A stretch of DNA of 64,000 nt, from assembly GCA_032718475.1 (NCBI GenBank), contig JAUCBJ010003535.1, positions 17,126 through 81,125 on the forward strand, given 5' to 3'. The notes below the pieces were generated by a model. That model did no database searches. It was not told where the DNA came from and was given only the letters and a program-made list of their open reading frames with translations. Of the stretch, positions 16,434 to 64,000 are shown one piece after another (position 1 is the first letter of the stretch; each line of letters opens with the position of its first letter). The translations under genes were made by a program, and so were the position numbers. The DNA comes from Nemertoderma westbladi. Taxonomy: Eukaryota > Animalia > Xenacoelomorpha.

Positions 16434-17799
16434 GTTTGTTTATACAGTTGAATGCCTACTGCTGTATTACAGTCTGAGCAAGTCTAGTAACTCAGTATTA
16501 ACTGCTAGCCTAGTAATTAATTACCGGTACTGCTACTCAGTGTAGCGTGATATATATAATATATTAGAATACCGGTATGCTTATAGTATATATAACTATT
16601 ATTACAGACTAGGTTTATCACAGAATACCGGTATAATTTTAGCACAAATATATGTAAAAATATAATAGGCCTATCGGAATACCGGTATACAGCTTACAGT
16701 TTGTAGTATATATAATTCTGAACTAGAATTAATTACAAGTACCGGTATAATTTCAGCCTAAATTTATAGAAATAAAGATAATAGGCCTATCGTAAATACC
16801 GGTATATCAATTATTTTAAATAACTGAATTTCTGAATCTCAAGGGTTACTTAGTTACTTTAACTTACTTTATTGCCGTTATTTAAGCAGTAGTCCAACTG
16901 ATATTGAGACCTAATGGTTGTATGGTAGGCCTACGATTTATAAATCGTTAGATTTGATTTATAATATATATATACCCGTTTTAATGGGTTTTGTCAATGT
17001 TTGAAATAAATGTTATTATTTCTGGGGAGTAATCACTACACAAAGCGGTGCGCTTTCAGTGAAGTGTTACGTACAGGACACTAAAACAAATAATACTAAT
17101 TTACCTAAGTTACTTAATACTACAAATTACGTACAATTCGGGTGAGATTACAATCTCTAAATAAACACAAAAATTTACAAAAAAAAACACAAAATACGAA
17201 TTTTTAGGGTAATTTTACAAGAAGTTTACAAACCAGCCTAACAAAGGGTTAGATAACCGGTTATTACAACGGACAGAGTACTACGGTATTTGAAATAATA
17301 AGTAGTAGTAAATACACTGCGTTGTCTAGATAGGAAATACCACCGCCTGACGACCTATAGCCGTATCGCTATAGGTTCTACGTTATGTATCACGGAGTGT
17401 TCCTACCTAGAAGTTAATAGAGCTAATCGAATGTGCCTATCAACCACTTTACAACACAAATATAATGCCTACAATAATTACTTCGGAAAGTACTGTACAC
17501 TAAACCCTAAATTAGGTACGAGTACTTGTACAACAGATAATCTGTAGTTAAATATACTTGAACAGCTAAAAGAACCACGGCATCTGCTGGAGTGACCGAT
17601 GCACAAAATCACCAGTCTTTACCTACGCCGAGCAGCCCGTGTAGTACCGGGGTTAATTTAACTATAACGGTATGTATAACAAACACAATTACTGTAGGAA
17701 CAAACTTGGGGAATTGAATGTTGCGAATAATTGCATAAACTCTGAATAATAAATATTACGCTACGCGTACAAACTACTCAAACAAAATACAGACCGAAC

Positions 17800-28715: not shown

Positions 28716-28814
28716 AGTTTTTAATCGAGTTAGTTCAATAAATCAATGCAGTGAAGCAATAAAGAAGATGCCAAGTGTATTTTGGAAACGGATGAATAAT
28801 AGAAACTCACAGTG
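28716..28814 (+). CDS. Exon of the ZMYND11-like gene, N-terminal extension (VFNRVSSINQCSEAIKKMPSVFWKRMNNRNSQ)
   Basis: ttttag acceptor, 99 nt, phase 2 to phase 2, donor TG|gtaagt. Joins 33700 in frame. Confidence 0.65.
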
Positions 28815-29098
28815 GTAAGTAATAAATAGGCATAAGTAGGGTAAGTACTGTATGTACAATAGAAACTCACAGTGGTAAGTAAGAAATAGGCATAAGTAGG
28901 GCTCAACAGAAGCTTCGGCTTCGGTTCGGTTCGGGCCGAAGTTTGGCAATTTCGGTTCGGTTCGGCTTCTGCAATTGATACTGCAGAAGCCAGGAGCAAA
29001 CTTTGCTAATTATTCCAAGTATTATATTGACTGATTGAGCTAAGACCAGAAGACAGTAAGACTAATCAATCTGTCCATCGTTGTACTAATTAATTTTG

Positions 29099-30496
29099 GG
29101 GTGCAAACGTTAAGCAGACACTGGTGCAGAGCAGACAGTAGGTACAGACAGTGGTGCAGACAGTGGTGCAGACAGTGATGCAGACAGTGGTGCAGACACC
29201 TGGTGAAACAGTGGTGCAGTCGTGCAGCCACTGGTGCAGACAGTTGTGCAGGCTTTGATACAGACAGTGGTGCAGACAGTGGTGCAGACACTGGTGCAGA
29301 CACTGGTGCAGACAGTGTTGCAGACAGTGGTGCAGACACCTGGTGCAGGCACTGGCTGACTGGTGCAGACACTGGTGCAGAGCAGACAGTGGTGTAGACA
29401 GTGGTGCAGACACTGGTGCAGACAGTGGTTCAGACACTGGTGCAGACAGTGGTGCAGACAGTGGTGCAGCCAGTGGTGCAGACAGTGGTGCAGCCAGTGG
29501 TGCAGACAGTGGTGCAGATACTGGTGCAGACACTGGCAGACTGGTGCAGACAGTGATGCAGACAGTGGTGCAGACACCTGGTGAAACAGTGGTGCAGTCG
29601 TGCAGCCACTGGTGCAGACAGTTGTGCAGGCTTTGATACAGACAGTGGTGCAGACAGTGGTGCAGACACTGGTGCAGACAGTGTTGCAGACAGTGGTGCA
29701 GACACCTGGTGCAGGCACTGGCTGACTGGTGCAGACACTGGTGCAGAGCAGACAGTGGTGTAGACAGTGGTGCAGACACTGGTGCAGACAGTGGTTCAGA
29801 CACTGGTGCAGACAGTGGTGCAGACAGTGGTGCAGCCAGTGGTGCAGACAGTGGTGCAGCCAGTGGTGCAGACAGTGGTGCAGATACTGGTGCAGACACT
29901 GGCAGACTGGTGCAGACAGTAAAGGCTGAAAGGGGCGAGCAGGTTAGTAAAGGAGCAGTTTAGTAAAGGAGCAGGTTTCAGAGGAGTATTGGGGGAACCA
30001 AAACAATAAACGTTATTGTTTTGGAGGCTAAGAATACCCAAGGGCCAAGAATACTCACAGGCTAAGAATACTCGCGGACTAACAATTCCTGAGACCTTAC
30101 TGTAGTTAGTCTGCACTGTCTGCACCACTGACTGACTGTCTGCACCAGTGTCTGCACCACTGTCTGCACCAGTGTCTGCACCACTGTCTGCACCAGTGTC
30201 TGCACCACTTTCTGCACCACTGTCTGCACCACTGTCTGCACCAGTGTCTGCACCACTGTCTGCACCAGTGTCTGCACCACTTTCTGCACCAGTCTGCACC
30301 ACTGTCTGCACCAGTGTCTGCATCACTGTCTGTACCAGTGTCTGCCGCACCACTGTCTGCACCACTGTCTGCACCAGTGTCTGTACCACTGTCTGCACGC
30401 TGCACCACTGTCTGCACCACAGTCTGCACCACTGTCCGCACCAGGTGTCTGCACCACTGTCTGCACTGCACCACTGTCTGCTTAACGTTTACACCC
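29099..30496. mobile_element. Foldback/Mutator-like element with modular 12-bp-repeat TIRs
   Basis: Termini gggtgYaaacgttaagcagac, inverted (TGCAGACAGTGG)n arms, and a 9-bp TSD ttaattttg (29090-29098 and 30497-30505). Confidence 0.9.
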
Positions 30497-31960: not shown

Positions 31961-33699
31961 TAGTTTAGGTTAGGCTAAATAGGCCTATTGCCATTTTACT
32001 TTGTAGTACCTATTTTTTAATTAATCATAACTTTGATACATAATACCAAATACAGAAATATACCTACTACCTCATACTGTCATATAAATAGTACTACCTG
32101 TACTTTTAGTGAGGTTTTCTAAATTTTATGTCACTACTGTACGGCTTACTACGGATGAAAATGTGGTGCATACAGTAGCAGTAAGTATACAGTAGTTTAG
32201 GTTAGTAATGCTGTACAGTAATGTAAATATTGTCATTTTATTTTGTAGTGCTTATTTTTTTAATTAATCATAGCTTTCTTGCTAAGTCCGCAGACCAAAT
32301 AGGTACCAGTCTGCCACTGCCAGTCAGCCAGTATAGTGACGTAAAGACGAATTTATGACCATAACTTGCTAACTTTCTGAACTTCGGTTCGGATTCGGTT
32401 CGGTTCGGCCCGAAGTTGGCCCTGCTTCGGTTCGGTTCGGTTCGGCACCATAAAGTGCCTTCTGTTGAACCCTAGGCATAAGTAGGGTAAGTACTGTATG
32501 TACAATAGAAACTCACAGTGGTAAGTAAGAAATAGGCATAAGTAGGGTAAGTACTGTATGTACAATAGAAACTAACAGTGGTAAGTAAGAAATAGGCATA
32601 AGTAGGGTAAGTACTGTATGTACAATAGAAACTCACAGTGGTAAGTAAGAAATAGGCATAAGTAGGGTAAGTACTGTATGTACAATAGAAACTCACAGTG
32701 GTAAGTAATAAATAGGCATAAGTAGGGTAAGTACTGTATGTACAATAGAAACTCACAGTGGTAAGTAAGAAATAGGCATAAGTAGGGTAAGTACTGTATG
32801 TACAATAGAAACTAACAGTGGTAAGTAAGAAATAGGCATAAGTTAGGGTAAGTACTGTATGTACAATAGAAACTCACAGTGGTAAGTAAGAAATAGGCAT
32901 AAGTAGGGTAAGTACTGTATGTACAATAGAAACTAACAGTGGTAAGTAAGAAATAGGCATAAGTTAGGGTAAGTACTGTATGTACAATAGAAACTCACAG
33001 TGGTAAGTAATAAATAGGCATAAGTAGGGTAAGTACTGTATGTACAATAGAAACTCACAGTGGTAAGTAAGAAATAGGCATAAGTAGGGTAAGTACTGTA
33101 TGTACAATAGAAACTAACAGTGGTAAGTAAGAAATAGGCATAAGTTAGGGTAAGTACTGTATGTACAAAATGAAATAGGCATAAGTAGGGTAAGTACTGT
33201 ATGTACAAAATTAAATAGACATACCTAATAGGAATTACCTATTAATTGTTAGTAAGCACAAAAAGAAATAGGCACAAACTACGGAAAAATAAGTGCATCC
33301 CGGAATTGTGTTGGTGGTTACACCAATACTGTTGCTATGCGACACGTATTAAATCCTTGGTGTTGTCTCAAATCCCACCGACATACCTTTAAATTTAATG
33401 TGTGCCCCATGATTGGTTATAGTCCATGCTCTCTAAGTTATGTGCCCCATGATTGGTTATACCCCGTAGGCCCTGCCTCTTCTCTAAGTTAAGACCAAGT
33501 GCTCTGATAAAATAAATATATTGTTGGAATATAATGCAAAGTGTTATTAATATTGTGTTATAATAATTATTCTGTATGAATTTAACAATGTTACAAAATA
33601 TAATTATTAATTACTGAAGACTTTGTATTCTACGCTTTATTATATATTTGTATGCCTATTTATCAACAAGCCCATCTTCACTTACCATTATTTTTCCAG

Positions 33700-45659: not shown

Positions 45660-46131
45660 GACGAACGGACTTTCATAAAACCGCCACCCATCGCCCCTCT
45701 CCGACGTAAAATACCTGCGTTTGTGGCGACGCGTCGCCCGCATGGGTTTCCCGGAGATACGCGCCGTAATATTATGGATTCAGCGGAGGAGGCGATAGAT
45801 GAACAAACCGGGACGACCGCAGCGAGGCAACGAGGTGCGAAACGGTTGCGGTACATAGTAGAGTCGGATAGCGAAGAGGGGGTGGTGAGCGATGTGGAGG
45901 GAGATTGGACTGAAGGAGAGGAGGAGATATCGGTATCGAGCAATGACGACTCTAATAGCGAGATGGATCAAATAAGACTTCCTCGGAGGGATGTGAGTAG
46001 ATTCGATCAGCCCCTTAGTGTGGACGTGGACCAATGTACCGTTGTTCTAGAACGGATAAACACACCGGAGACAGTGAAGAGGGGTGCTACCTCACACCAA
46101 TCCTCTTTGAAAGGGAGCAATAGGAATTTCG
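45660..46131 (+). CDS. ZMYND11-like gene exon (acidic, disordered)
   Basis: catag acceptor, open frame, G|gttagt donor, phase 0 to 1. Confidence 0.8.
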
Positions 46132-46245: not shown

Positions 46246-47288
46246 GTAAATCTCGAAGCGATCTGAGATGGAAGAAACTTCGACGAACTCCGGAATCCGA
46301 CGATTATACGGAGGAGAGCGGGAGTGGTTACTACGGGTCGCCCAGTGACAGTTCTGGTCGCGATAGTAACACCGACTCTACCGAAATCGGGATCGCTATA
46401 GGGCCAAACATCGCGATAAAACGACCACCGACGGCCTGGCTGGAAGCCAACCAGTCGTCCATAGCAACGGTCGGTCAAGTCACAGAAACTCGGAGTACCA
46501 ACTCCGGAGTCGCTCGCATTAAAACTGTTACTCATACCGGAAGTAATGTTACTCATACCGGAAGTAATGTTACTCATACCGGAAGTAATGTTACTCATAC
46601 GGGAAGTAATGTTACTCCTACCGGAAGTAATGTTACTCATACCGGAAGTAATGTTACTCATACTGGAAGTAAGGTTACTCATAACAGAAGTAATGTTACT
46701 CATACCGGAAGTAATGTTACTCATACCGGAAGTAATGTTACTCATACCGGAAGTAAGGTTACTCATAACGGAAGTAATGTTTCTCATACCGGAAGTAATG
46801 TTACTCATGCCGGAAGTAAGGTCACTCATACCGGAATTAATGTTCCGCGTACCGGAAGTCGTGAGTCCCTGCTCGTCAGTCGGTCGCCGTACCCGGATAG
46901 GACTGGTAGCGACTGCTCAGTGGCTCAACTGGGACTCCCGTTGGTTCACCTACAGTGCTGCGTCAGTGAGCCGAGCGGCTCGGGCCACCAATCGAGGGCG
47001 ACGCCCAGTAGATACAACAACTACTCGTCCGATAATGCGAGTGCGATTAGTGGATCGCCCCAAGCGGTACCCGTAAATAATAAACGCGTTAACCCGTCCC
47101 ACACTAAACGTGTGAGCTCGACTCACACTAAACGTGCGAACTCGAGTTCTTCCCACACTAACCGAGGTCTTCCATCGCACAATCGAAACACTTCGCCTGT
47201 AGGAAGTGCGCTAACCACCGCTCCCAACTCAGAAACAATCCGTAATGGCCTCCTCACTCCCCCAATAACCCCCGACACACAATTCGAG
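46246..47288 (+). CDS. ZMYND11-like gene exon, Ser/Thr-rich, with (VTHTGSN)n
   Basis: ttcttag acceptor, GAG|gtaatt donor, phase 1 to 0, uninterrupted frame. Confidence 0.8.
46527..46860 (+). repeat. Coding 21-bp minisatellite, about 16 units
   Basis: Unit gttactcataccggaagtaat, in frame. Confidence 0.95.
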
Positions 47289-47719: not shown

Positions 47720-47761
47720 ACTGGCACGGGGAACTTTGAGACTAAAGGACATTCGCTCCAG
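47720..47761 (+). CDS. ZMYND11-like gene 42-nt exon (TGTGNFETKGHSLQ)
   Basis: tttgtag acceptor, CAG|gtaaac donor, phase 0 to 0. Confidence 0.75.
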
Positions 47762-47923: not shown

Positions 47924-48074
47924 CGCCGTTCAACAAACACAATCGTAGTTTGGTACCTTTGGGCCGGAGTCCGTGAGATTCGAAAGGGAAAGAAATGCGC
48001 AACGTTGTCGCGATTAGTCGGCTACATGTTGAAGAATGTTGAGTCAACAAAACGTGAAGTTATTGCCAATATCA
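47924..48074 (+). CDS. ZMYND11: ZMYND11-like exon, N-terminal winged-helix domain
   Basis: RRSTNTIVVWYLWAGVREIRKGKKCATLSRLVGYMLKN resembles the ZMYND11 N-terminus ([35 protein letters not shown]). Phase-1 donor A|gtaagt. Confidence 0.88.
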
Positions 48075-51000
48075 GTAAGTTATTGCCAATATCAGTAAGT
48101 TATTGCCAATATCAGTAAGTTATTGCCAATATCAGTAAGTTATTGCCAATATCAGTAAGTTATTGCCAATATCAGTAAGTTATTGCCAATATCAGTAAGT
48201 TATTGCCAATATCAGTAAGTTATTGCCAATATCAGTAAGTTATTGCCAATATCAGTAAGTTATTGCCAATATCAGTAAGTTATTGCCAATATCAGTAAGT
48301 TATTGCCAATATCAGTAAGTTATTGCCAATATCAGTAAGTTATTGCCAATATCAGTAAGTTATTGCCAATATCAATGAGTTATTGCCAATATCAGTAAGT
48401 TATTGCCAATATAAGTAAGTTATTGCCAATATCAGTAGTTATTGCCAATATCAGTAAGTTATTGCCAATATCAGTAAGTTATAGCCAATATCAGTAAGTT
48501 ATTGCCAATATCAGTAAGTTATTGCCAATATCAGTAAGTTATTGCCAATATCAGTAAGTTATTGCCAATATCAGTAAGTTATTGCCAATATCAGTAAGTT
48601 ATTGCCAATATCAGTAGTTATTGCCAATATCAGTGAGTTATTGCCAATATCAGTAAGTTATTGCCAATATCAGTAAGTTATTGCCAATATCAGTAGTTAT
48701 TGCCAATATCAGTAAGTTATTGCCAATATCAGTAAGTTATAGCCAATATCAGTAAGTTATAGCCAATATCAGTAAGTTATTGCCAATATCAGTAAGTTAT
48801 TGCCAATATCAGTAAGTTATTGCCAATATCAGTAAGTTATTGCCAATATCAGTAAGTTATTGCCAATATCAATAAGTTATTGCCAATATCAGTAAGTTAT
48901 TGCCAATATCAGTAAGTTATTGCCAATATCAGTAAGTTATAGCCAATATCAGTAAGTTATTGCCAATATCAGTAAGTTATTGCCAATATCAGTAAGTTAT
49001 TGCCAATATCAGTAAGTTATAGCCAATATCAGTAAGTTATAGCCAATATCAGTAAGTTATTGCCAATATCAGTAAGTTATTGCCAATATCAGTAAGTTAT
49101 TGCCAATATCAGTAAGTTATTGCCAATATCAGTAAGTTATTGCCAATATCAATAAGTTATTGCCAATATCAGTAAGTTATTGCCAATATCAGTAAGTTAT
49201 TGCCAATATCAGTAAGTTATTGCCAATATCAGTAAGTTATTGCCAATATCAATAAGTTATTGCCAATATCAGTAAGTTATTGCCAATATCAGTAAGTTAT
49301 TGCCAATATCAGTAAGTTATTGCCAATATTAGTAAGTTATTGCCAATATCAATGAGTTATTGCCAATATCAGTAAGTTATTGCCAATATCAGTAAGTTAT
49401 TGCCAATATCAGTAGTTATTGCCAATATCAGTAAGTTATTGCCAATATCAGTAAGTTATAGCCAATATCAGTAAGTTATTGCCAATATCAGTAAGTTATT
49501 GCCAATATCAGTAAGTTATTGCCAATATCAGTAAGTTATTGCCAATATCAGTAAGTTATTGCCAATATCAGTAAGTTATTGCCAATATCAGTAAGTTATT
49601 GCCAATATCAGTAAGTTATTGCCAATATCAGTAAGTTATAGCCAATATCAGTAAGTTATTGCCAATATCAGTAAGTTATTGCCAATATCAGTAAGTTATT
49701 GCCAATATCAGTAAGTTATAGCCAATATCAGTAAGTTATTGCCAATATCAGTAAGTTATTGCCAATATCAGTAAGTTATTGCCAATATCAGTAAGTTATT
49801 GCCAATATCAGTAAGTTATTGCCAATATCAGTAAGTTATTGCCAATATCAGTAAGTTATTGCCAATATCAGTAAGTTATTGCCAATATCAGTAAGTTATT
49901 GCCAATATCAGTAAGTTATTGCCAATATCAATGAGTTATTGCCAATATCAGTAAGTTATTGCCAATATCAGTAAGTTATTGCCAATATCAGTAGTTATTG
50001 CCAATATCAGTAAGTTATTGCCAATATCAGTAAGTTATAGCCAATATCAGTAAGTTATTGCCAATATCAGTAAGTTATTGCCAATATCAGTAAGTTATTG
50101 CCAATATCAGTAAGTTATTGCCAATATCAGTAAGTTATTGCCAATATCAGTAAGTTATTGCCAATATCAGTAGTTATTGCCAATATCAGTGAGTTATTGC
50201 CAATATCAGTAAGTTATTGCCAATATCAGTAAGTTATTGCCAATATCAGTAGTTATTGCCAATATCAGTAAGTTATTGCCAATATCAGTAAGTTATAGCC
50301 AATATCAGTAAGTTATAGCCAATATCAGTAAGTTATTGCCAATATCAGTAAGTTATTGCCAATATCAGTAAGTTATTGCCAATATCAGTAAGTTATTGCC
50401 AATATCAGTAAGTTATTGCCAATATCAATAAGTTATTGCCAATATCAGTAAGTTATTGCCAATATCAGTAAGTTATTGCCAATATCAGTAAGTTATAGCC
50501 AATATCAGTAAGTTATTGCCAATATCAGTAAGTTATTGCCAATATCAGTAAGTTATTGCCAATATCAGTAAGTTATAGCCAATATCAGTAAGTTATAGCC
50601 AATATCAGTAAGTTATTGCCAATATCAGTAAGTTATTGCCAATATCAGTAAGTTATTGCCAATATCAGTAAGTTATTGCCAATATCAGTAAGTTATTGCC
50701 AATATCAATAAGTTATTGCCAATATCAGTAAGTTATTGCCAATATCAGTAAGTTATTGCCAATATCAGTAAGTTATTGCCAATATCAGTAAGTTATTGCC
50801 AATATCAATAAGTTATTGCCAATATCAGTAAGTTATTGCCAATATCAGTAAGTTATTGCCAATATCAGTAAGTTATTGCCAATATCAATGAGTTATTGCC
50901 AATATCAGTAAGTTATTGCCAATATCAGTAAGTTATTGCCAATATCAGTAGTTATTGCCAATATCAGTAAGTTATTGCCAATATCAATAAGTTATTGCCA

Positions 51001-53031
51001 ATATCAGTAAGTTATTGCCAATATCAGTAAGTTATTGCCAATATCAGTAAGTTATTGCCAATATCAATGAGTTATTGCCAATATCAGTAAGTTATTGCCA
51101 ATATCAGTAAGTTATTGCCAATATCAGTAGTTATTGCCAATATCAGTAAGTTATTGCCAATATCAGTAAGTTATTGCCAATATCAGTAAGTTATAGCCAA
51201 TATCAGTAAGTTATTGCCAATATCAGTAAGTTATTGCCAATATCAGTAAGTTATTGCCAATATCAGTAAGTTATAGCCAATATCAGTCAATAAGTTATTG
51301 CCAATATCAGTAAGTTATTGCCAATATCAGTAAGTTATTGCCAATATTAGTAAGTTATTGCCAATATCAATGAGTTATTGCCAATATCAGTAAGTTATTG
51401 CCAATATCAGTAAGTTATTGCCAATATCAGTAGTTATTGCCAATATCAGTAAGTTATTGCCAATATCAGTAAGTTATAGCCAATATCAGTAAGTTATTGC
51501 AAATATCAGTAAGTTATTGTCAATATCAGTAAGTTATTGCCAATATCAGTAAGTTATTGCCAATATCAATAAGTTATTGCCAATATCAGTAAGTTATTGC
51601 CAATATCAGTAAGTTATTGCCAATATCAGTAAGTTATTGCCAATATTAGTAAGTTATTGCCAATATCAATGAGTTATTGCCAATATCAGTAAGTTATTGC
51701 CAATATCAGTAAGTTATTGCCAATATCAGTAGTTATTGCCAATATCAGTAAGTTATTGCCAATATCAGTAAGTTATTGCCAATATCAGTAAGTTATTGCC
51801 AATATCAGTAAGTTATTGCCAATATCAATAAGTTATTGCCAATATCAGTAAGTTATTGCCAATATCAGTAAGTTATTGCCAATATCAGTAAGTTATTGCC
51901 AATATCAGTAAGTTATTGCCAATATTAGTAAGTTATTGCCAATATCAATGAGTTATTGCCAATATCAGTAAGTTATTGCCAATATCAGTAAGTTATTGCC
52001 AATATCAGTAGTTATTGCCAATATCAGTAAGTTATTGCCAATATCAGTAAGTTATAGCCAATATCAGTATCAGTAAGTTATTGCCAATATCAGTAAGTTA
52101 TTGCCAATATCAGTAAGTTATTGCCAATATCAGTAAGTTATTGCCAATATCAGTAAGTTATTGCCAATATCAGTAAGTTATTGCCAATATCAGTAAGTTA
52201 TTGCCAATATCAGTAAGTTATAGCCAATATCAGTAAGTTATTGCCAATATCAGTAAGTTATTGCCAATATCAGTAAGTTATTGCCAATATCAGTAAGTTA
52301 TAGCCAATATCAGTAAGTTATTGCCAATATCAGTAAGTTATTGCCAATATCAGTAAGTTATTGCCAATATCAGTAAGTTATTGCCAATATCAGTAAGTTA
52401 TTGCCAATATCAGTAAGTTATTGCCAATATCAGTAAGTTATTGCCAATATCAGTAAGTTATTGCCAATATCAGTAAGTTATTGCCAATATCAATGAGTTA
52501 TTGCCAATATCAGTAAGTTATTGCCAATATCAGTAAGTTATTGCCAATATCAGTAGTTATTGCCAATATCAGTAAGTTATTGCCAATATCAGTAAGTTAT
52601 TGCCAATATCAGTAAGTTATTGCCAATATCAGTAAGTTATTGCCAATATCAGTAAGTTATTGCCAATATCAGTAAGTTATTGCCAATATCAGTAAGTTAT
52701 TGCCAATATCAGTAAGTTATTGCCAATATCAATAAGTTATTGCCAATATCAGTAAGTTATTGCCAATATCAGTAAGTTATTGCCAATATCAGTAAGTTAT
52801 TGCCAATATCAATGAGTTATTGCCAATATCAGTAAGTTATTGCCAATATCAGTAAGTTATTGCCAATATCAGTAGTTATTGCCAATATCAGTAAGTTATT
52901 GCCAATATCAGTAAGTTATAGCCAATATCAGTAAGTTATTGCCAATATCAGTAAGTTATTGCCAATATCAGTAAGTTATTGCCAATATCAGTAAGTTATT
53001 GCCAATATCAGTAAGTTATTGCCAATATCAG
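48059..53031 (+). repeat. 20-bp satellite, about 250 units, made of the exon end plus splice donor
   Basis: Unit gttattgccaatatca|gtaa; the first copy overlaps the last 16 nt of the exon. Confidence 0.98.
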
Positions 53032-53126
53032 CAATATAGCGGCGCAGTAACGTGGTACCGGTATTATAAATCCAATGGTCCATATATTTATTTTTTTAAC
53101 TAATTTATTTATATCATCTCTCACAG

Positions 53127-53524
53127 ACTGCGCTGTTAAAGAAGGTCTGCTCTACCGGATGGTCGTCCAGGGTTCATACACTCAGGATACTGACGTCACT
53201 GATAACTCAATCCCAGAATTAATCTCATCCAACGGGACTGTAGAACAATACTTCATACCTAAAGACATCCCCACCCGTTACAAACACGACTGGTATTGTT
53301 TCCAGTGCCACGCAGGTAACGAAGGCGATGTATACGAATGCGCCGTCTGCGATCGCGTCTACCATACCCGCTGCCTGTCGGACAAGGTGGTTAACAGCGC
53401 CCCCTGGCGGTGTCGGTTTTGTTTGGCTGCGTCCGACGCTACTTCTGTTAACGCCAATATCGGACTCAGCCACTCGGTGCTCAATAAAACTCTCGCGTTC
53501 GTCCTGAACAGGATGAAGGAAAAG
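53127..53524 (+). CDS. ZMYND11: ZMYND11-like exon: end of winged helix, PHD finger, start of bromodomain
   Basis: CAVKEGLL...HDWYCFQCH..VYECAVCDRVYHTRCL..PWRCRFC..LAFVLNRMKEK; phase 1 to 0. Confidence 0.93.
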
Positions 53525-54971
53525 GTTAGCGCCGTAGTTAGCCGAGCTGTGCCATATAGTTAGTCGAGCTGTGCCATAGTTAGCCGAGCTGTGCCATAGT
53601 TAGTTGAGCTGTGCCATAGTTAGCCGAGCTGTGCCATAATTAGCCGAGCTGAACCATAGTTAGCCGAGCTATGCTATAGTTAGCCGAGATGTCCTATAGT
53701 TAGCCGAGCTGTGCCATAGTTCGCTGAGCTGTGCCATAGTTCGCCGAGCTGAGCCATAGTTAGCCGACCTGCGCCATAGTTAGGGGAGCTGTGCCATAGT
53801 TAGTGCCATAATTATCCGAGCTGAACCATAGTTAGCCGACCTGCGCCATATTCTTAGTCGAGCTGTGCCATAGTTAGCCGAGCTGTACCATAGTTAGTCG
53901 AGCTGTGCCATAGTTAAACGAGCTGCGCCATAGTTAGGCGAGCTGTGCCATAGTTAGCGTAGCTGTGCCATAGTTAGTGCCATAATTATCCGAGCTGAAC
54001 CATAGTTAGCCGAGCTGTGCTATATTTTATTTAGCCGAGCTGTGCTGTGCCATAGTTAGTCGAGCTGTGACATAATAGTTAGCCTAGCTGTGCCATAATT
54101 AGCCAAGCTGACGCATAGTTAGCCGAGCTATGCTATAGTTAGCAGAGCTGTGCCATAATTAGCCGCGTTGTACCTTAGTTAGTCGAGCTGGGCCATAATT
54201 AACCGAGCTGTGCCATAATTAGCTGAGCTGTGACATAGTTAGCCGAGCTGCGCCATATAGATAGCGGAGCTGTGCCATTGTTAGTCGAGCTGGGCCATAA
54301 TTAACCGGGCTGTGCCATAATTAGCCGAGTTGTGACATAGTTAGCCGAGCAGCGACATAGTTAGCCGAGCTGTACCATAGTTAGCCGAGCTGTAACATTG
54401 TTAGTCGAGCTGCGCCATAGTAGTCGAGCTGTGACATAATAGTTAGCCTAGCTGCGCCATAATTAGCCAAGCTGACGCATAGTTAGCCGAGCTATGCTAT
54501 AGTTAGCAGAGCTGTGCCTTAGTTAGCCGAGCTGGGCCATAATTAACCGAGCTGTGCCATAATTAGCTGAGCTGTGACATAGTTAGCCGAGCTGGGCCAT
54601 AATTAACCGAGCTGTGCCATAATTCGCCGAGCTGTGACATGCTTAGTCGAGCTGTGCCATAGTTAGTCTGTGACATAATGGTTAGCCTAGCTGTGCCATA
54701 ATTAGCCAAGCTGAAGCATAGTTAGCCGAGCTATGCTATAGTTAGCAGAGCTGAGCCATAATTAACCGCGCTGTGCCTTAGTTAGTCGAGCTGGGCCATA
54801 ATTAACCGAGCTGTGCCATAATTAGCTGAGCTGTGACATAGTTAGTCGAGCTGCGCCATATAGTTAGCGGAGCTGTGCCATAGTTAGTCGAGCTGCGCCA
54901 TATAGTTAGCGGAGCTGTGCCATAGTTAGTCGAGCTGGGCCATAATTAGCCGCGCTGTACCATAGTTAGCC
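53525..54971 (+). repeat. Diverged 20-bp satellite starting at the splice donor, about 70 units
   Basis: Unit gttagccgagctgtgccata; the donor is AAG|gttagc. Confidence 0.95.
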
Positions 54972-55020: not shown

Positions 55021-55204
55021 AGTCAGAAAATTCATCTGATCGCTCCCCTCGATGAGGACCAGAAGTTTTACGACTCGATCATTTACAAACACATGGACAT
55101 GAAAGTGATGGGAAACAAAATCCACAAGGAGTTGTACACCTGTCTGGAGGAGTTCGAGGGAGACGCCTTGAGGATGCAGCATAACTGCGTCTTATATTAC
55201 GGAT
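55021..55204 (+). CDS. ZMYND11: ZMYND11-like exon, bromodomain
   Basis: FYDSIIYKHMDMKVMGNKIHKELYTCLEEFEGDALRMQHNCVLYYG; tttattag acceptor and T|gtaagt donor. Confidence 0.92.
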
Positions 55205-56011
55205 GTAAGTTATTGTATTACGGATGTAAGTTATTGTATTACGGGTGTAAGTTATTGTATTACGGATGTAAGTTATTGTATTACGGATGTAAGTTATTGT
55301 ATTACGGGTGTAAGTTATTGTATTACGGATGTAAGTTATTGTATTACGGATGTAAGTTATTGTATTACGGGTGTAATTTATTGTATTACGGGTGTAAGTT
55401 ATTGTATTACGGGTGTAAGTTATTGTATTACAGGTGTAAGTTATTGTATTACGGATGTAAGTTATTGTATTACGGATGTAAGTTATTGTATTACGGGTGT
55501 AAGTTATTGTATTACGGGTGTAAGTTATTGTATTACGGATGTAAGTTATTGTATTACGGGTATTGTATTACGGATGTAAGTTATTGTATTACGGGTGTAA
55601 GTTATTGTATTACGGATGTAAGTTATTGTATTACAGGTGTAAGTTATTGTATTACAGGTGTAAGTTATTGTATTACGGGTGTAAGTTATTGTATTACAGG
55701 TGTAAGTTATTGTATTACGGGTGTAAGTTATTGTATTACGGGTGTAAGTTATTGTATTACGGGTTTAAGTTATTGTATTACGGGTGTAAGTTATTGTATT
55801 ACAGTGGTGTAAGTTATTGTATTACGGATGTAAGTTATTGTATTACGGGTGTAAGTTATTGTATTACGGGTTTAAGTTATTGTATTACGGGTGTAAGTTA
55901 TTGTATTACAGGTGTAAGTTATTGTATTACGGATGTAAGTTATTGTATTACGGGTGTAAGTTATTGTATTACGGATGTAAGTTGTTGTATTACGGATGTA
56001 AGTTATTGTAT
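55195..56011 (+). repeat. 21-bp satellite spanning the splice donor, about 38 units; resumes at about 57075-57100
   Basis: Unit tattacggRt|gtaagttattg. Confidence 0.97.
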
Positions 56012-56014
56012 TCT

Positions 56015-57078
56015 GTATGTTATTGTCTACTGTCTGCCCATTGCTACAGCATGCGATCATCTTGAAGTCGGCTACCACATCTACGCTGACGACAACCAGA
56101 TCTTCATAATTTTCGACTGCCTTGACTCATTGGCACTAAAAGCTTCGATAGCAAATTGCATCCAAGCCATCAAAGTGCAACTCGATGAACTTCACCTGTT
56201 CTTGAATGATGACATGACAGACATCCTACTACTTGGACGCGGCAACGATTTCTTGAGCTTTGCATCAGAATTCTCAGTCTCTCTAGGCGGCAAGATAATT
56301 CAATCCCTATCCACCGTAACAACCCTTGGAGTTCGCTTCGATAGTCAGCTAAATATGCATGATCACATTAAAACTCTCAAATCTATTCTATAATAATTCT
56401 ATATTCTAATTCTAATATTCTAATAATTCTAATCTATATCAGCATCTATTAACTTTCACCTCAGGAACATACGTCGAATAAAAGAACACTTGTCTTCTGA
56501 TAATCTGAAGAAGCTTGTCAATGCTCTAATAATATCACGTATCGATCAAAACAACAGTCTTCTGTATAATCTACCAACTGTGTCCCTCAACAGACTACAA
56601 CTTGCACTTAATAGCTGCGCCCGCCTTATTTCAGGTCAACCGGTTCGGTCTCACATCACCCCTACTTTACGAACTCTTCACTGGTTGCCGGTCACCTTCC
56701 GTATCGAGTACAAGATTGCACTCATGACGTGGAAGGCGCTTAATGGTCTCGCCCCGTCTTACATTTTAGAACTGTTGACTCCAAACTACAACCCAACTAG
56801 AACCCAACAACTGTGGACTTTATCGGTCCCAAGATACAACTTAAAGACGGTCGGTTCCCGTGCATTTAAACATGCTGCCCCAGTTATTTTCAACAGTATC
56901 CCCCTTAGCTTAAGAACTTGCACAAATTTAGAATCATTCAAATCTCAACTCAAAACATGTTTATATAATAGGGCCTTCAACTGACTTTCTAACTGTTTTT
57001 ACTACTGCGCCTTTGAACCTTGCGAAAAAGGCGCATAACAAGAAATTGTGTATTATTATTATTATTATTATTATTATT
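56015..57078 (+). mobile_element. 5'-truncated L2/CR1-group LINE inserted in the 21-bp array
   Basis: YADD RT motif, SHITPTLRTLHWLPV C-terminus, 3' stem-loop gcgccttt..aaaggcgc, (ATT)n tail. The frame is broken by an (attcta)n expansion at about 56385-56435. Confidence 0.9.
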
Positions 57079-57214
57079 ACAGGTGTAAGTTATTGTATTT
57101 TTTTTAATATTAATTAAAACTAATATAATTTGTGTTATAAATCTAAAAATATTTAGCAAGTTGTTAGACTTAATTACTGTAAGAAAAAAAGCTACGGACT
57201 ACTGGCTACTGACC

Positions 57215-58177
57215 TAGACCAACAACGGCGATAACGATTTTGATGAAATTTTGCATGGACCATGAAAATGGATTTCTAAGGGTACTTGTGAAATCGCGCT
57301 TTAAATTGAAACATCTCAACTTGTTTTATTTCAAAAAATAGCCCCAAAACACGAAAACACTTTCTTTGCTAAGTATTATCACTCTACTCTACAACCCAGA
57401 CAGTAATCAAACATAAACTGATTTAACTATTACAGTCTCAGCTGAATAACTCTTCCCAATGCATCCTTGCTATGTTAATTAATTGGCGTGCAAGCTAAAT
57501 GACTGTTAGTTATACAGTGTGTTGGCTACACAGTGTATTGTACTATGCTCTCATCGCATTATTGTTTTATTTTGAAATCTTTGTGCCAACATTAATACTG
57601 TGGAGGCTCTATGCTTATAAGGCTGAATGTTTACTCAGCCTCATAATGATTCTTCATAAGGCTAACATTATAGTTTGAAATATAAAAATCTGTTATATAA
57701 TAATAATATAATTGTTGTATTTAATTAATATCGTGGTTTACATTTAACAGTGTAAATTGTTAATCGCGGTTTACATTGAAACATCTCAACTTGTTTTATT
57801 TATTACAAAAATAAGAACGAATTTGTCTTATCACTTATTGTGCGCGATTGTATTGAATTCATGACAACTGCTGTTATTATTATTAATCAATTGACACCTC
57901 GACTCCTCTCTGAGACTCCGACTACTCTATCCGATAGAATAAAATAATCATTTCGCTAACTGCTCTCTATCTTCTATAATCACAACAGCTTTTATAATTC
58001 ATTAGATGATTACAACATAATAATTATAGTTTGAAGTTGTCTAGAAAATTTTTCGTACACCACCGGGACTACCCTCACACTAATTTATTATCAGACAGAA
58101 CAAAAAGCTTTTACTTGACTCGTACTGTCTCCTACGACTTGCTTCACGGGCCGCTAGGCCGCTAGGCCCGTCTCTAG
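57215..58177 (+). mobile_element. Probable non-autonomous Helitron-type element; only the 3' end is well defined
   Basis: GC hairpin acgggcc..ggcccgt followed by CTAG|T at 58146-58178. The 5' boundary is a guess. Confidence 0.45.
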
Positions 58178-58603
58178 TTACCGAATGAAAGAAACCAGGT
58201 TACATAACAAATAAATGTGATAAACCTTTAGTTCTGGTGCTTTTGAAAAATAACATATAAAATTATAAAAACTTAGCCATGCGAAAATAGATCAAATAGA
58301 GTAGAAATGATCCAAAATAATTCCTAAAACTACAAACTCGTCAAACGAGACATAAAATGCATATCGAATATATCCGAGGCCAATATCCTATAGAGAGACT
58401 CTATTATTATAGATAGAAAAATATTGGAATTGGGACAGAAAGGGGCGGAATACTTAGTTAGTTATTGTTGGGATATAATTAATTTATTAATTAATTACAG
58501 AACTTAAGTAAAAAATAAATAAAGAAAAAGTAAAAACATAAAGCGAAGGAAAGCAACATGATAATACAAATTTCCCAAAGAACAAGCCGATATTATAGAT
58601 CGT

Positions 58604-59899
58604 TTAATGCGCTACGACGCCTCCAGTAGAAGCTATGGTTGCCAACCTACTGGCGTCCACACCGACAACCGCAGACTGCTTCCTCCCCCCACTGCCACCC
58701 GTCCCCTTCCCTCCTCTGCCCCCTCTCCCCCGCACCGGCCCCCGCTCTATAACCACTAGTCTCTCCGTGGCTCCCAGCGGGGCCGCCACCGCCTTAGCCA
58801 CCCTAGGGAGCGCATCGAGCACCAACGAGTTGACGGCTGCCCCGCCGTACCGACTATACGCCCTCGCTTTGCTCTCCATCCCGACAGCCTCCGCTTCTCC
58901 GACCGCCTTTATGCTCGCGGCCTCGGCCCCGCCTATCAGCCGGATCTCCTCGGCGGCTCCCTTTGCCAGCTCCACCGTCTGCGTACGTCTCCCCCCCGCT
59001 TCGCGCTCCATTCTGTAGCTCTCCGCCTCCGCTGGGACCCGCACTGTAGCCGACAACTCCTTATCCTTCCTCGCAACCTCCTGATCTTCGATCTGGATCT
59101 GTTTCCGTCGTTCGACCACTTCGATCTGGACTTCCTCGGATTTAATCTCTTGTTGAATCTTGGCTGTTTGTAGTTTATAGGCGAGTTCGGATTGGGCGCG
59201 AATAATACTCACCTCTCCATCGAACTCAGCTTCCTTCATCTCGAATCCCCTTTTACTATCGGCTATCGATGAGTCAGCTGCGTACCGACTATCCAACCGC
59301 AGTTTATCCGCTTGCGCCTGCGATATCTCCGCGTCCCGCTCCGCTTCCGCAACGGCCACTGACGCGTCTCGCATTACAGCCGCCGTCTGAGAACGACCCA
59401 AAGAGTTCAGATAATCCACCATATCTGTGACGTCCTTAATAGTAAAACTTAGTATCTCGATACCCATTCTACTAATATCTGGAGCTGCGACTTCTCGAAT
59501 CAGTAAGGCAAATTTATCCCGATCTTTATAAATATCTTCTACAGTTAAAGTTCCTAGAATAGATCGTAAATGCCCTTCCAGAGTCTGTAAGACCAGGTCT
59601 TTTATTTCGCTTTGATCTCTACCTAAAAATTGCTCGCAAGCAATCGCTAATAACTGACTCTCTGTCATCACTTTGGCTTGGACGCAACAAGTTACAGTTA
59701 CCGGGACTCCCTCGCTCGTCTCCACTTGTTCGCATCTCGGGTTGAGTGTCATTAACTCCAGGCTGATGGTCTGGACATCTGACACTAACCACCAGGCCCA
59801 GCCCCATCCTCCCACCACGAACTTCCGTCCCAGTCCCCCACACAGACCTCCAGATATCACCAGCGCCTCGTTAGGCCCCACTACGTGGATGTTCCCCAT
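58604..59899 (-). CDS. FLOT2: Flotillin-2 (reggie-1), single exon, 431 aa
   Basis: MGNIHVVGPNEALVISGG..GGWGWAWW..LQTLEGHLRSILGTLTVE..AAPDISRMGIEILSFTIKD SPFH domain, followed by the AEAE flotillin coiled coil. Confidence 0.95.
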   Translation of the reverse strand: MGNIHVVGPNEALVISGGLCGGLGRKFVVGGWGWAWWLVSDVQTISLELMTLNPRCEQVETSEGVPVTVTCCVQAKVMTESQLLAIACEQFLGRDQSEIKDLVLQTLEGHLRSILGTLTVEDIYKDRDKFALLIREVAAPDISRMGIEILSFTIKDVTDMVDYLNSLGRSQTAAVMRDASVAVAEAERDAEISQAQADKLRLDSRYAADSSIADSKRGFEMKEAEFDGEVSIIRAQSELAYKLQTAKIQQEIKSEEVQIEVVERRKQIQIEDQEVARKDKELSATVRVPAEAESYRMEREAGGRRTQTVELAKGAAEEIRLIGGAEAASIKAVGEAEAVGMESKARAYSRYGGAAVNSLVLDALPRVAKAVAAPLGATERLVVIERGPVRGRGGRGGKGTGGSGGRKQSAVVGVDASRLATIASTGGVVAH

Positions 59900-61665
59900 A
59901 GTTTCGACGGTGAGTATTCTTTCTGTCTTTCGATAGACAGTTCAGCAGTTCGAGAAGTACCGGTATCAGAGTATTCTTACAGACTTATCCAGGTGTCCAG
60001 TACCCTATCGCTACCGGCAAACTGGTATTCTTTCGTCTTCAGTCCTGCCTACCACAGTACCGGTACAGCGGTAGGCCTACTACTGTACTACTGTACTATA
60101 CAGTATTAGTTAAGTATTATTAAGTTATTGTATTATAGTCTACCTGCCAACTCCCGAAAATTAAGTTTAGATGGCATTTTTTGTTAATGGTTGGCATCCA
60201 CCTGATTTTTGTACTTCAAGACATGGCGAATCCGGCTAGGCCGGATGCCACCTCTGCATTTTTAATTTAATGCCTTTTTTTGGGCTTCAAAGTTTTTTGC
60301 TCAAAAATGTGTTTTCTTCAATTTTAGGATACAAGTTCATGGTGAATGCTAGTGAATCTCGTCTCATAACCAGTGTATAAATTGAAAGTTAATCAAAATG
60401 CATCAATGTTGTCCTGAAACTGTTATAAACACTTTGGTAAAGAAGAAAATTTCCGAAATTCCCTTGCAGTCCGCCAACCCGGCCCTAGTAACCGCCTTAG
60501 CAACAGATTTATGAAATTTAAATTATCAATTTCTTTGTCTCACATTTCCTTTTCCTGAGAAAATCAACAAACAGTTTTAAAAATCAAAAAACCCATCACA
60601 TAACTTATATGACATCTTGGGAACACATCAAGGGCAATATAAAATCAAATAGCGTCTAATGTCGCAGACACAGGCCCATTATTTGGACCAGAGTAATTTT
60701 CACAAGTATCAAAATATTGAGTTTAAGTGGAGAATTCGTGTACCTTTACTCAACTATTTGCTTCTATATTTGTAATTATTTTAAAATATCACTACAGCTC
60801 AGTAGCATGGTGATACTTCCCGTCATATTGTGCACATTCAGGTGACATTTACAGACCACGTTACCATAGCAACAGACCAAATAAGACAATTTAATAAGAA
60901 TTTAATTTACAGTATAACTATAATGTAGTTTTCCCTAGGCCTACCTTACCAGAGTTTGAGAGATTAAATGTAACACACGTCGCATAGCTATAACCTTCGA
61001 CTGTTAGTCAACATCCTATCGTGACTTGGGGGAATATTGTTTAATATAAATATGAATTTTAAAGTATCTCATGCGTTCATTGAGGAGACCTACAGTTAAT
61101 AGTTAACTCACTCTAAATTCTGCTAAGATATTAGTTTTGCAACAGGCAGGTACATCACACTATGCACCGTCGAGACAGGGGTTGAGCGGGGGAGGGGGCA
61201 CAAATCCCATTTCTGTTTTTATTTTGTTTTTATTTCAATTATTTTTTCTCAATGTTAAATTATCAATTTAGGGAAAGGACCAGTTTACAATGGCACGTTA
61301 TTCCAACCAAAACAATAAACGAATCTCAATAGAACAGATTGAAGTTTAATTTTTGAGAGTAATCGGGTGTTATTTGCATCGATTTTCCCCTGGAGAGGGA
61401 TCAATTTTGATTGCGTTGAAAGTAATGTAATTACAGTAACAGTAATGTTTCTTTCACTTTGAGATTGATTTTCACTATCACTTGCATCTGCCTATTATTA
61501 TTATGACTTGATGAAAATGGATGGTGACGAACATATTCCTACTATCAAAAGGAAAACTTGCCCGAATGTGGTTTGTGAAGAGACATGCATAGTATATGGA
61601 GCAAAGAAAGATGAGCCATTAAGAATTGCTTCAGTTGACGGCAAGTTAAAATTAAATGTGTCAGC

Positions 61666-64000
61666 ACTACTACTACTATTACTACTACTACTATTGGCAT
61701 GCTACATTGCAGCTGCATTATATACAGTATATTACATATATATTTAGAATGCTGTGCAGGCTTGTCGACAAAATTGCGTTGCCACAACTCTCTGGCACCC
61801 ATGACAATTGCTATATCATCCGCATCTTCAAGGCCAGTGTCCTTTAAGATGCGTCTCAAGAAAGTCATGGGTTGTCCACCATGCTTATTCACTTCATGAG
61901 GTAGCCAAAGTACAAGATAATGCACTGGCTGTTCCTCACAGTGAAAGCAATGTCCTGCAAGGCTGAGGCGGTTCCGTTCAAGTGGCAAGCTAGAGGAGAC
62001 TGATGAAACAGCTCCAATGTTGTATAGAGTCTGGTTGGAGATGTGTTCGTTGTACATAACACAATGAACCCGGCGCAGCATTCTTGAGAAGGTGCCATCC
62101 AGAGATTTGGTATCCTCTGCAGTTAGAGCCCAGCGTGGACTCCCATGGAACTACTGCTGCCAGAAATAATCGAACCTTGAGGTACCGTTTTATTATGTGG
62201 GAATTACAAATCCTGGATAGTCTATTCAATGCAGCCCATGCCTCCCCCTTACGTATCCGAAGGTCCTCACCTGAGTTTCTGATCCATGATCCCAAGTAGC
62301 AGAAGTCATCCACGTGCTCAAGCAAGCCATTCCTGGAGCTTATTCCCTTACGATCAGATATTTCTTGAGGGCTGTCTAGGTTGACTGTCATAATTTTTGT
62401 CTTCTTGGAATTTACAAAAAGACAAACACTAGAAGCAACCTCGTCTAATGAGCAGAGAAGCCTTTGGGCTACCTCTAGTGATTCTGACAGTATCCCTATA
62501 TCATCAGTAAAGTCTATATCAGTTAGGTACTTTGCTGGATTTCCTCCACTTATTGTGCCAGTAGGGGTACCATCATCCCATTTTAATAATTTTAATTTTT
62601 ATGGTCTAAGGACATGCGTAGAACACAATCAACCACAATTAAGAATTAGTATGGCACAAGTGTGTAACCCTGAAGGATTCCGCATAAGAGTTCGAATGGA
62701 TCTGTGTCACCATCAGCAGTAGACGCAAATGTGGTGGAACCATCAAACAGTGATCGGAAAGCTGCAATAATTTCCCCAGGAAACCAATGTGCTACAAGTA
62801 TGCTAAACATCCGTGGTCGGGAGACTGAGTCGAAGGCCTTAAAGAAGTCAACAAAGATAATAGCCAGATGTATGTCTTTCTTTGTTGATAACTCTTTGAT
62901 TATCCTTCTAAGTGCCAGAATAGACTTCATGTCCCACGACCTTTATGGAACCCATTTTGGTTCTCACAGGATTCCTGATGCGATTTAATAGAATTCTGTT
63001 GTATTGCTTTGCAGCAATCGAGATTAACGAGTTTCCACGAAAAGCTTTATAGGTTGTTAGGTTGCCCTTTTTTGGTGCATGGACCAACTTATATATTTTC
63101 ATTTCTTGAGGGACTATCTTTGTCCTATACATACTCAGAATAATGGGGTGACTGAGCTCTAAGCACTCAGCAATTTTAAAGACCTCAGGGGCACGCCATC
63201 TACTCCAATGGCACGATTGGTCTTCAAGCCCCTTACTGCAGTCTTAATTTCAGCAAATGAGATGTGGATATCTGTGAGCACAGAATCAGATACACGATGT
63301 ACCTCAAAGTTATCAGGCAATACCCTGTTATGTTTGGAAGCTTTTCAAAGTAGGCCTTCCAACATCCAACCATTATTGAGGAGTTCAGGAGATTCAGCAT
63401 TAACCTTGGTGGTTGGTTGGCTTTTCCTCCCAGTGAGCAGGTTTACTGATTGCTATGCCTGAGCTGATTGCCTGCTATCATCAGCGTTAATGGCATCAAC
63501 CTCGGCCCTACTTATTGATAAGCTCCTTTAGCATCCTTGTCTGTCTTCGTGTGCCCTAGTCGGCGGGACTCATTCTGCGCCATTTGAGGTCATTTCGGCA
63601 CTTCCGAATTCTGTGATCAGTGCGGGGGGGGGGGGGCTATTTCCTGTTTCGAGGATATACAGGATCTGTTTCAGCAGCTGCTAAATTAACTGCTTCTGTG
63701 AAGGCAGTATAGCCCACGCAGTGATTTGCCGCCTCAGAGGCGAGAACCTCATACCTCAACTGTAGTGTGAAGCTGGATCTCACAACTGGGCTGTTGCAAC
63801 AAAGAGGACCAGTCATTCCTTGGCAATTCTGCTAGCGTGGAGGCTAAGTCTTACCTTGGCCACAATAATAGGTAATAGCTGGATAAGGGTCGAAGTGCAA
63901 ATATACTTCAGTCTTGTACAGAATAGAGCTCCTGTATTTCCCACGAAACAGAATATGGTATATCTGGGACGTGTGACCACTTGGTCCAGTATGAGATGTA
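61666..64000 (-). mobile_element. Decayed RTE-clade LINE
   Basis: Frameshifted RT pieces (FVDFFKAFDSVSR, GILQGYTLVPY, DDFCYLGSWI, LAGHC) and a (TAG)n tail at 61666-61693. Confidence 0.88.

Follow-up and report, generated by a model that had tools for sequence, protein, structure and literature searches.

Repeats that span an exon-intron boundary

Minisatellites whose first unit lies across an exon-intron boundary, and which repeat the 5' splice site (donor) down the intron, form a known class called exon-intron-boundary minisatellites, 5' pseudo-site variable number tandem repeats (VNTRs) or 'mirages'. Judged by its anatomy, the 20-nucleotide (nt) satellite that fills intron 4 of a ZMYND11-like gene in Nemertoderma westbladi is a member of this class. 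The window, the whole stretch of DNA that was analysed, comprises 64,000 nt of contig JAUCBJ010003535.1 in assembly GCA_032718475.1, and all coordinates are window positions. The gene model, its splicing and the use of its donors are predicted from the DNA letters, splice signals, reading frame and homology. We consider it probable that the array is a boundary minisatellite that arose by slippage and block duplication and has been tolerated because the first donor is chosen and the array is removed as one intron.

The accessible text of PMC1557585 describes the class for human F7, IFI6 (6-16), CBS, LMNB2 and PDGF. Minigenes with the 37-bp VNTR of F7 intervening sequence 7 (IVS7) were spliced at the most upstream functional donor only, and variation from 1 to 12 units made no change. 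LMNB2 and PDGF likewise use the most upstream donor only, and in 6-16 and CBS the next two donors are used too (PMC1557585). The Nemertoderma array resembles this type in that the first unit spans the boundary and the donor is reiterated down the intron. It differs in having 213 donors and a 20-nt unit, where the human repeats have 5-25 copies and, where given, units of 37-100 bp. F7 copies 4 exon nt compared with 16 here, and its donor use has been measured whereas here it is predicted.

The 25-bp VNTR in intron 18 of ABCA7 is similar in having hundreds of units, with 12-427 units given in the available part of PMC5954066 and 11-330 copies found by long reads according to that of PMC13747324. 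Retention of one unit amounted to 2 +/- 1% independently of length, and the response to nonsense-mediated decay (NMD) did not track length either. Use of the second donor causes a frameshift in about 2%, which is degraded by NMD, and skipping of the exon after the VNTR rises 3.2- to 4.1-fold with length (PMC5954066). The ABCA7 unit begins at the donor GT and is C-rich, whereas the unit in Nemertoderma is AT-rich with 16 coding nt. Length polymorphism and an effect on exon skipping have been demonstrated for ABCA7, while the present array is known from one sequence.

In amphioxus, 'mirage' minisatellites occur in Adh3 and in the globins BflGb6 and BflGb9, with splicing apparently undisturbed as far as the accessible portion of PMC3087553 tells. 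These are also tandemly duplicated exon-intron boundaries in an invertebrate, several per genome, and their end units escape homogenisation, as does the last unit here. They have 3-6 units in the globin case and units of 10-160 bp, in contrast to the 249 units of the present array, and here three consecutive introns of one gene are affected. The arrangement had been presented as unprecedented in an earlier sequence-only reading of the window, but F7, ABCA7 and the amphioxus mirages place it, within what these sources cover, in a class already described. On its sequence, it is a real, large and clean example of that class. A literature search in which most subscription papers were beyond reach gave no report on this locus or on a non-human array this large.

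The array and its predicted productive donor

Intron 4 extends from the donor GT at 48075 to the acceptor AG ending at 53126 and is 5052 nt long. Its parts are:

48059..53034, plus strand: 20-nt satellite with 249 units and 213 consensus donors; the unit read from the first donor is GTAAGTTATTGCCAATATCA
48075..48080, plus strand: first donor GTAAGT, the sole frame-keeping donor of the array
53031..53126, plus strand: non-repeat remainder of intron 4, 96 nt, beginning with GC in the last unit, with ACTAAT at 53099 and the acceptor ending at 53126

Tandem Repeats Finder places the repeat at 48057-53031 with period 20, 248.9 copies and 96% matches. The satellite share of the intron is 98.1%, in agreement with the earlier estimate of about 98%, and the 96 nt left are close to the predicted collapse to about 100 nt; this remainder is likely the ancestral intron body. 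The array begins 18 nt inside exon 4, and its unit consists of 16 exon nt, copied from the last 16 nt of that exon (48059-48074), followed by GTAA. When cut at the copied exon start the repeat yields 249 units, 183 of which are identical to the consensus with the full 16-nt exon context and GTAAGT, so that the description of most units in these terms is correct. The 248 unit junctions read GTAAGT in 211 cases and GTGAGT in 2; the others comprise 14 with a single base deleted and 21 in which the GT is lost. The last unit, the 249th, reads GC. The figure of about 250 near-identical donors was therefore an overcount, there being 213 consensus donors. Two marks of an exon-intron-boundary minisatellite are present, namely a first unit that spans the boundary and a donor identical to the authentic one repeated in the intron (211 GTAAGT and 2 GTGAGT).

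When the GT(A/G)AGT donors are joined to exon 5, the frame stays open in 1 of 213 cases, that of the first donor, which the sequence-only reading had also named as the only one to give a protein. Donor 2 (+20 nt) leads to a stop at codon 569 and donor 3 (+40 nt) to a stop at codon 548. Donors 4 and 5 run into a TAA within the array at codon 545, and all later donors include the same TAA; the frame shifts of 20 and 40 nt and the later in-array TAA had been foreseen. The join from the first donor is gap-free at the junction across 27 ZMYND11-type homologues and has a profile score of 185.6 bits. Donors 2-4 score about 27 bits on this profile, and a join that skips exon 4 scores -2.6. The claim of an intact split winged-helix frame is upheld. 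Donor 1 is thus singled out by frame and homology. The homologues in the profile are 27 of 150 listed HMMER matches, chosen by eye for length and for a match at the expected position.

The host gene was modelled with six exons and 725 codons containing 0 stops:

45774..46131, plus strand: exon 1, with ATG at 45774 and a low-complexity N-terminus; an inferred model from the open frame and GT-AG limits, with no Pfam hit
46246..47288, plus strand: exon 2, 1043 nt, containing an in-frame 21-nt coding repeat
47720..47761, plus strand: exon 3, 42 nt, inferred from splice signals and frame
47924..48074, plus strand: exon 4 (151 nt), holding the first stretch of the winged helix; profile hit E 1.1e-7
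53127..53524, plus strand: exon 5, the remaining winged helix and a complete PHD finger
55021..55204, plus strand: exon 6, bromodomain PF00439 with E 1.8e-8, above cut-off, at Pfam profile positions 26-73 of 84

The modelled introns 1-5 measure 114, 431, 162, 5052 and 1496 nt. The earlier comparison with neighbouring introns of 114 and 162 nt is right for introns 1 and 3 but left out intron 2 of 431 nt and the fact that both downstream introns are satellite-expanded. All five introns are GT-AG and have a branch-type motif within their last 70 nt; these motifs are clear and of the ACTAAT or TTAAT type. Two of the six gene donors (46132 and 53525) read GTTAG, an uncommon donor type. The coding repeat of exon 2 lies at 46526-46859 and has about 16 copies of the in-frame 21-nt unit; with it, there are four arrays of period 20-21 inside 10 kb.

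The order of winged helix, PHD and bromodomain matches the N-terminal architecture of the chromatin reader ZMYND11 (BS69), and the same regions occur in this order in ZMYND8. The profile of the 27 homologues matches exons 4, 5 and 6. Exon 4 has a weak match to the N-terminal chain of ZMYND11 (9loa_A, E 0.076), and the top solved-structure match for exon 5 is the ZMYND11 PHD (9m0u_A, E 3.8e-12) with ZMYND8 second. The PHD of exon 5 reaches 20.7 bits in Pfam, under the cut-off of 24, and its cysteines and histidine are in register with ZMYND11. The predicted protein differs from both relatives in about 480 extra low-complexity N-terminal residues, and the window yielded no bromodomain end, PWWP or MYND. 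An HMMER search gave 151 hits, all distant, the best with 59 bits and, among the matches listed, none above 63% identity on short stretches. Of 77 candidates from a word-index search of longer proteins with exon 5, none reached E 0.001, and scanning metagenomes turned up a single weak locus (27 residues, 52%). The gene is filed here as ZMYND11-like only.

The two introns that follow also carry arrays at their donors:

53531..54971, plus strand: an older satellite in intron 5, with about 72 copies of a 20-nt unit that differ from the consensus by 11%
55195..56012, plus strand: intron-6 satellite, 21-nt unit (10 exon nt and 11 intron nt), 39 copies
56020..57079, plus strand: 3' fragment resembling a long interspersed nuclear element (LINE), inserted where the intron-6 array ends, ahead of the last unit, and finishing with a TAT run
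57085..57156, plus strand: final copy of the intron-6 donor; the intron-like body here is 72 nt long and includes CTAAT and an acceptor, beyond which a stop follows within 3 codons

In the intron-5 satellite the donor pentamer GTTAG occurs 46 times, mostly preceded by ATA, and no exon context accompanies it. A second exon-intron-boundary repeat is that of intron 6, where 16 of the 35 GTAAGT donors are in frame without a stop. Its unit and that of intron 4 have their first 11 nt in common (48075-48085 and 55205-55215), 5 of these beyond the donor hexamer, which may be due to chance or to exchange between the two arrays. The fragment at 56020..57079 is presumably LINE-like, from a reverse-transcriptase motif, and a Pfam search of 56433-56981 gave no hit.

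The nearest array starts 18, 6 and 10 nt from the donors of introns 4, 5 and 6, and 295-763 nt from those of introns 1-3. With 9 long arrays placed uniformly in 64 kb, such hits at 3 of 6 donors have a P of about 4e-6. For arrays that originate in the free 5' portion of an intron of 70-160 nt, each intron has a chance of 0.2-0.6 when exclusion zones are assumed, so much of the anchoring at donors is explained by short ancestral introns.

Origin of the array and choice of the donor

The first slip likely occurred at a short microhomology between exon and intron across the donor of an intron of roughly 96 nt. The exon reads GTGAA directly 5' of the copied 16 nt and the intron begins GTAA, and therefore the AA common to exon positions -18/-17 and intron positions +3/+4 could have templated the first duplication. 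This would have put GTAA ahead of the GT of the exon and created the consensus GTAAGT in the copies. In the simplest reading of this one event, the ancestral donor would be the last copy, which reads GC and is continuous with the 96-nt remainder.

The array would then have grown to 249 units through the duplication of blocks. A run of 45 units, 13 of them variant, occurs twice in exactly the same form, starting at 48419 and 49975, 1556 bp apart, compared with at most 3 in 100 shuffles. This indicates that a block was duplicated in the genome or, with lower likelihood, in the assembly. Smaller motifs of variants reappear 10 times in differing settings of the array. The duplicated block and the GC of the last unit may be marks of turnover in this one sequence.

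The mean divergence from consensus is 1.6% in intron 4 and 11% in intron 5 (56 of 64 units scored), array divergence being a rough clock only. In a neutral-decay simulation at 12% divergence the frame was kept in 0 of 500 runs, and since this is about the divergence of the intron-5 array, the gene has likely been under selection while carrying arrays. It was thus likely functional while the older intron-5 array was present.

The spliceosome would then commit to the first donor and the whole array would leave as one intron. By analogy with F7 and ABCA7, as far as the accessible accounts of these go, the 151-nt exon 4 would be defined during transcription, kilobases ahead of the acceptor. Selection of the first donor through first-come commitment during transcription is likely the best account. 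The same two cases suggest that a few percent of transcripts would use donor 2 or 3 and meet a premature stop roughly 300-400 nt upstream of the following junction, a position that would suit NMD. For these two donors the stops lie 302 and 385 nt short of the exon-5 end. All of the first 15 donors are intact, so there is no sign of nearby competitors being purged.

An array donor is predicted to pair with U1 at 6 of 11 positions with a duplex of -5.6 kcal/mol, compared with -14 kcal/mol for a full match to the U1 end, and it is similar in this to gene donors 1, 5 and 6. The exon positions -3 to -1 are all non-consensus, and for this reason the copied exon context adds no U1 pairing. Directly after its synthesis donor 1 is predicted to be more open than any other donor, the predicted cost of opening at 10-20 nt past the site being 0.6-0.8 kcal/mol for donor 1 and 2.3-5.3 kcal/mol for the others. 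Self-complementarity as a masking device was also considered and rejected because its DNA z-score of -4.3 came from non-periodic shuffles and 81 of 200 shuffled-unit arrays fold equally well.

Several points weigh against selection of the first donor in a living gene. The folding edge of donor 1 is absent 30 nt beyond the site and likewise at 80 nt, and the pseudo-donors are predicted to be more open than three of the gene's authentic donors. When two strong donors lay over 45 nt apart in HeLa assays, splicing took place at the intron-proximal site, a proximity rule linked to high U1 occupancy in the available text of PMC3413131; the weak donors of the array may possibly be below the occupancy needed for it. 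The unexpanded introns of the host are short, and the 7 last donors would give introns of at most 250 nt, so that intron definition narrows the choice to these. Eight donors give an exon of at most 300 nt, and exon definition alone therefore cannot single out the first. As for the gene itself, no PWWP or MYND exon was found in 55205-64000, and at 1.6% divergence the frame survives 24% of substitution-only runs, which makes recent gene death possible.

This leads to the alternative that survives best, although it is unlikely: that the locus represents a ZMYND11 paralogue, either truncated or recently dead, in which the young arrays of introns 4 and 6 grew since splicing no longer matters. A C-terminal profile for PWWP/MYND gave no hit better than E 0.24 and 0 motif matches in 55205-64000. 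Nothing similar to the bromodomain end was found after exon 6, where each of 135 candidate acceptors raised the score by about 5 bits at most. The nearest good acceptor, at 57156, is followed by a stop after 3 codons and cuts the bromodomain, and two just beyond lead to 24 and 18 unrelated codons. A LINE-like piece inside intron 6, a flotillin gene that ends tail-to-tail 1.4 kb downstream and the expansion of three consecutive introns point the same way. Against death of the gene stand 725 open codons, five GT-AG introns with branch-type motifs and the aligned PHD cysteines and histidine; at a divergence of 1.6% the frame is kept in 1.4% of runs if 10% indels are assumed. The exons that are missing might be located past 64000, with the flotillin gene nested in a long intron. 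The gene may thus either be truncated near 57160 or continue past the window.

It is rather improbable that array length tunes output, in the sense that a longer array gives more use of later donors or more skipping of exon 4 or 5 with the frameshifted products degraded. Every alternative product here is predicted to be non-productive, the skipping of the next exon in ABCA7 increases with length (PMC5954066) and, by the proximity rule (PMC3413131), the last donors should see some use. However, as far as these sources are accessible, donor choice in F7 was unchanged with 1-12 units (PMC1557585) and one-unit retention in ABCA7 was independent of length at 2% (PMC5954066); a length effect alone would not amount to adaptation.

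That a real array has been inflated in length by the assembly, for example by a false duplication of about 1.5 kb, is very unlikely. The exact 45-unit block recurring 1556 bp apart would fit this, but the 10 recurrences of smaller variant motifs in differing settings are as real turnover predicts, and more than 150 units remain after removing the block.

Stepwise removal of intron 4 by recursive or nested splicing, as proposed earlier, is scarcely credible. The 226 CAG trinucleotides of intron 4 and a variant creating TAG in 20 units would be its raw material, but a recursive-splicing ratchet, with YAG directly followed by GT and an upstream branch site, was not found: intron 4 has 0 AG-GT sites, the array holds no branch-type motif and the sole such motif, ACTAAT at 53099, is outside it. 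A late donor joined to the real acceptor would also use the acceptor up and create no new AG at the join.

The earlier idea that the pre-mRNA titrates U1 small nuclear ribonucleoprotein as a sponge can be set aside almost entirely despite 213 consensus hexamers in one intron, because the predicted duplex at 6 of 11 positions is among the weakest of the six donors of the gene, and U1, with about a million copies per human cell, is very abundant compared with the nascent RNA of one gene. The array is most likely a passenger tolerated through first-donor selection, and no function is proposed for it.

Surroundings of the gene and meaning of the array

The flotillin-like gene (58607-59902, minus strand) is intronless and has Band 7 and Flotillin domains. 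Its identity is at most 65% among 120 listed homologues, so a close relative appears to be absent from the protein collection searched with it. In the flotillin tree the sequence from the window has a very long branch (1.87), which by this neighbouring gene shows the host to be a fast-evolving animal.

The window contains further repeats. Each unit of a 60-nt array at 32473-33223 holds two GTAAGT motifs; no exon is evident beside the array, and related sequence near 28733-29009 suggests a dispersed element. A 1350-codon open frame at 12390-16439 (minus strand) is probably a putative retrotransposon polyprotein. Paired 12-nt arrays in opposite orientation (2699-4620 and 29131-30466) resemble fold-back element ends. 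Further decayed fragments that are presumably LINE-like by their motifs, in addition to that at 56020-57079, lie at 61548-63243 and 165-590.

A broader proposal is that in this fast-evolving animal short introns of about 70-160 nt repeatedly become kilobase donor arrays, three running in one gene, that the first of 213 donors 20 nt apart must be picked against the proximity rule and that array length sets the amount of productive chromatin-reader mRNA; in this full form it is doubtful. The gain from the locus lies in scale and setting and not in a new principle, since the class is known and the human case, by the available text on ABCA7, has more units. If expressed, the gene would offer an exceptionally clear natural experiment on how a 5' splice site is chosen, with 213 donors, a shared exon context and one productive outcome, and junction reads would report directly which donor is used. 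Intron 6 would be an internal contrast, since many of its extra donors are in frame. Expression would also extend first-donor selection from the human and lancelet genes, as the accessible sources describe them, to an animal with short introns, opposite to what the proximity rule predicts.

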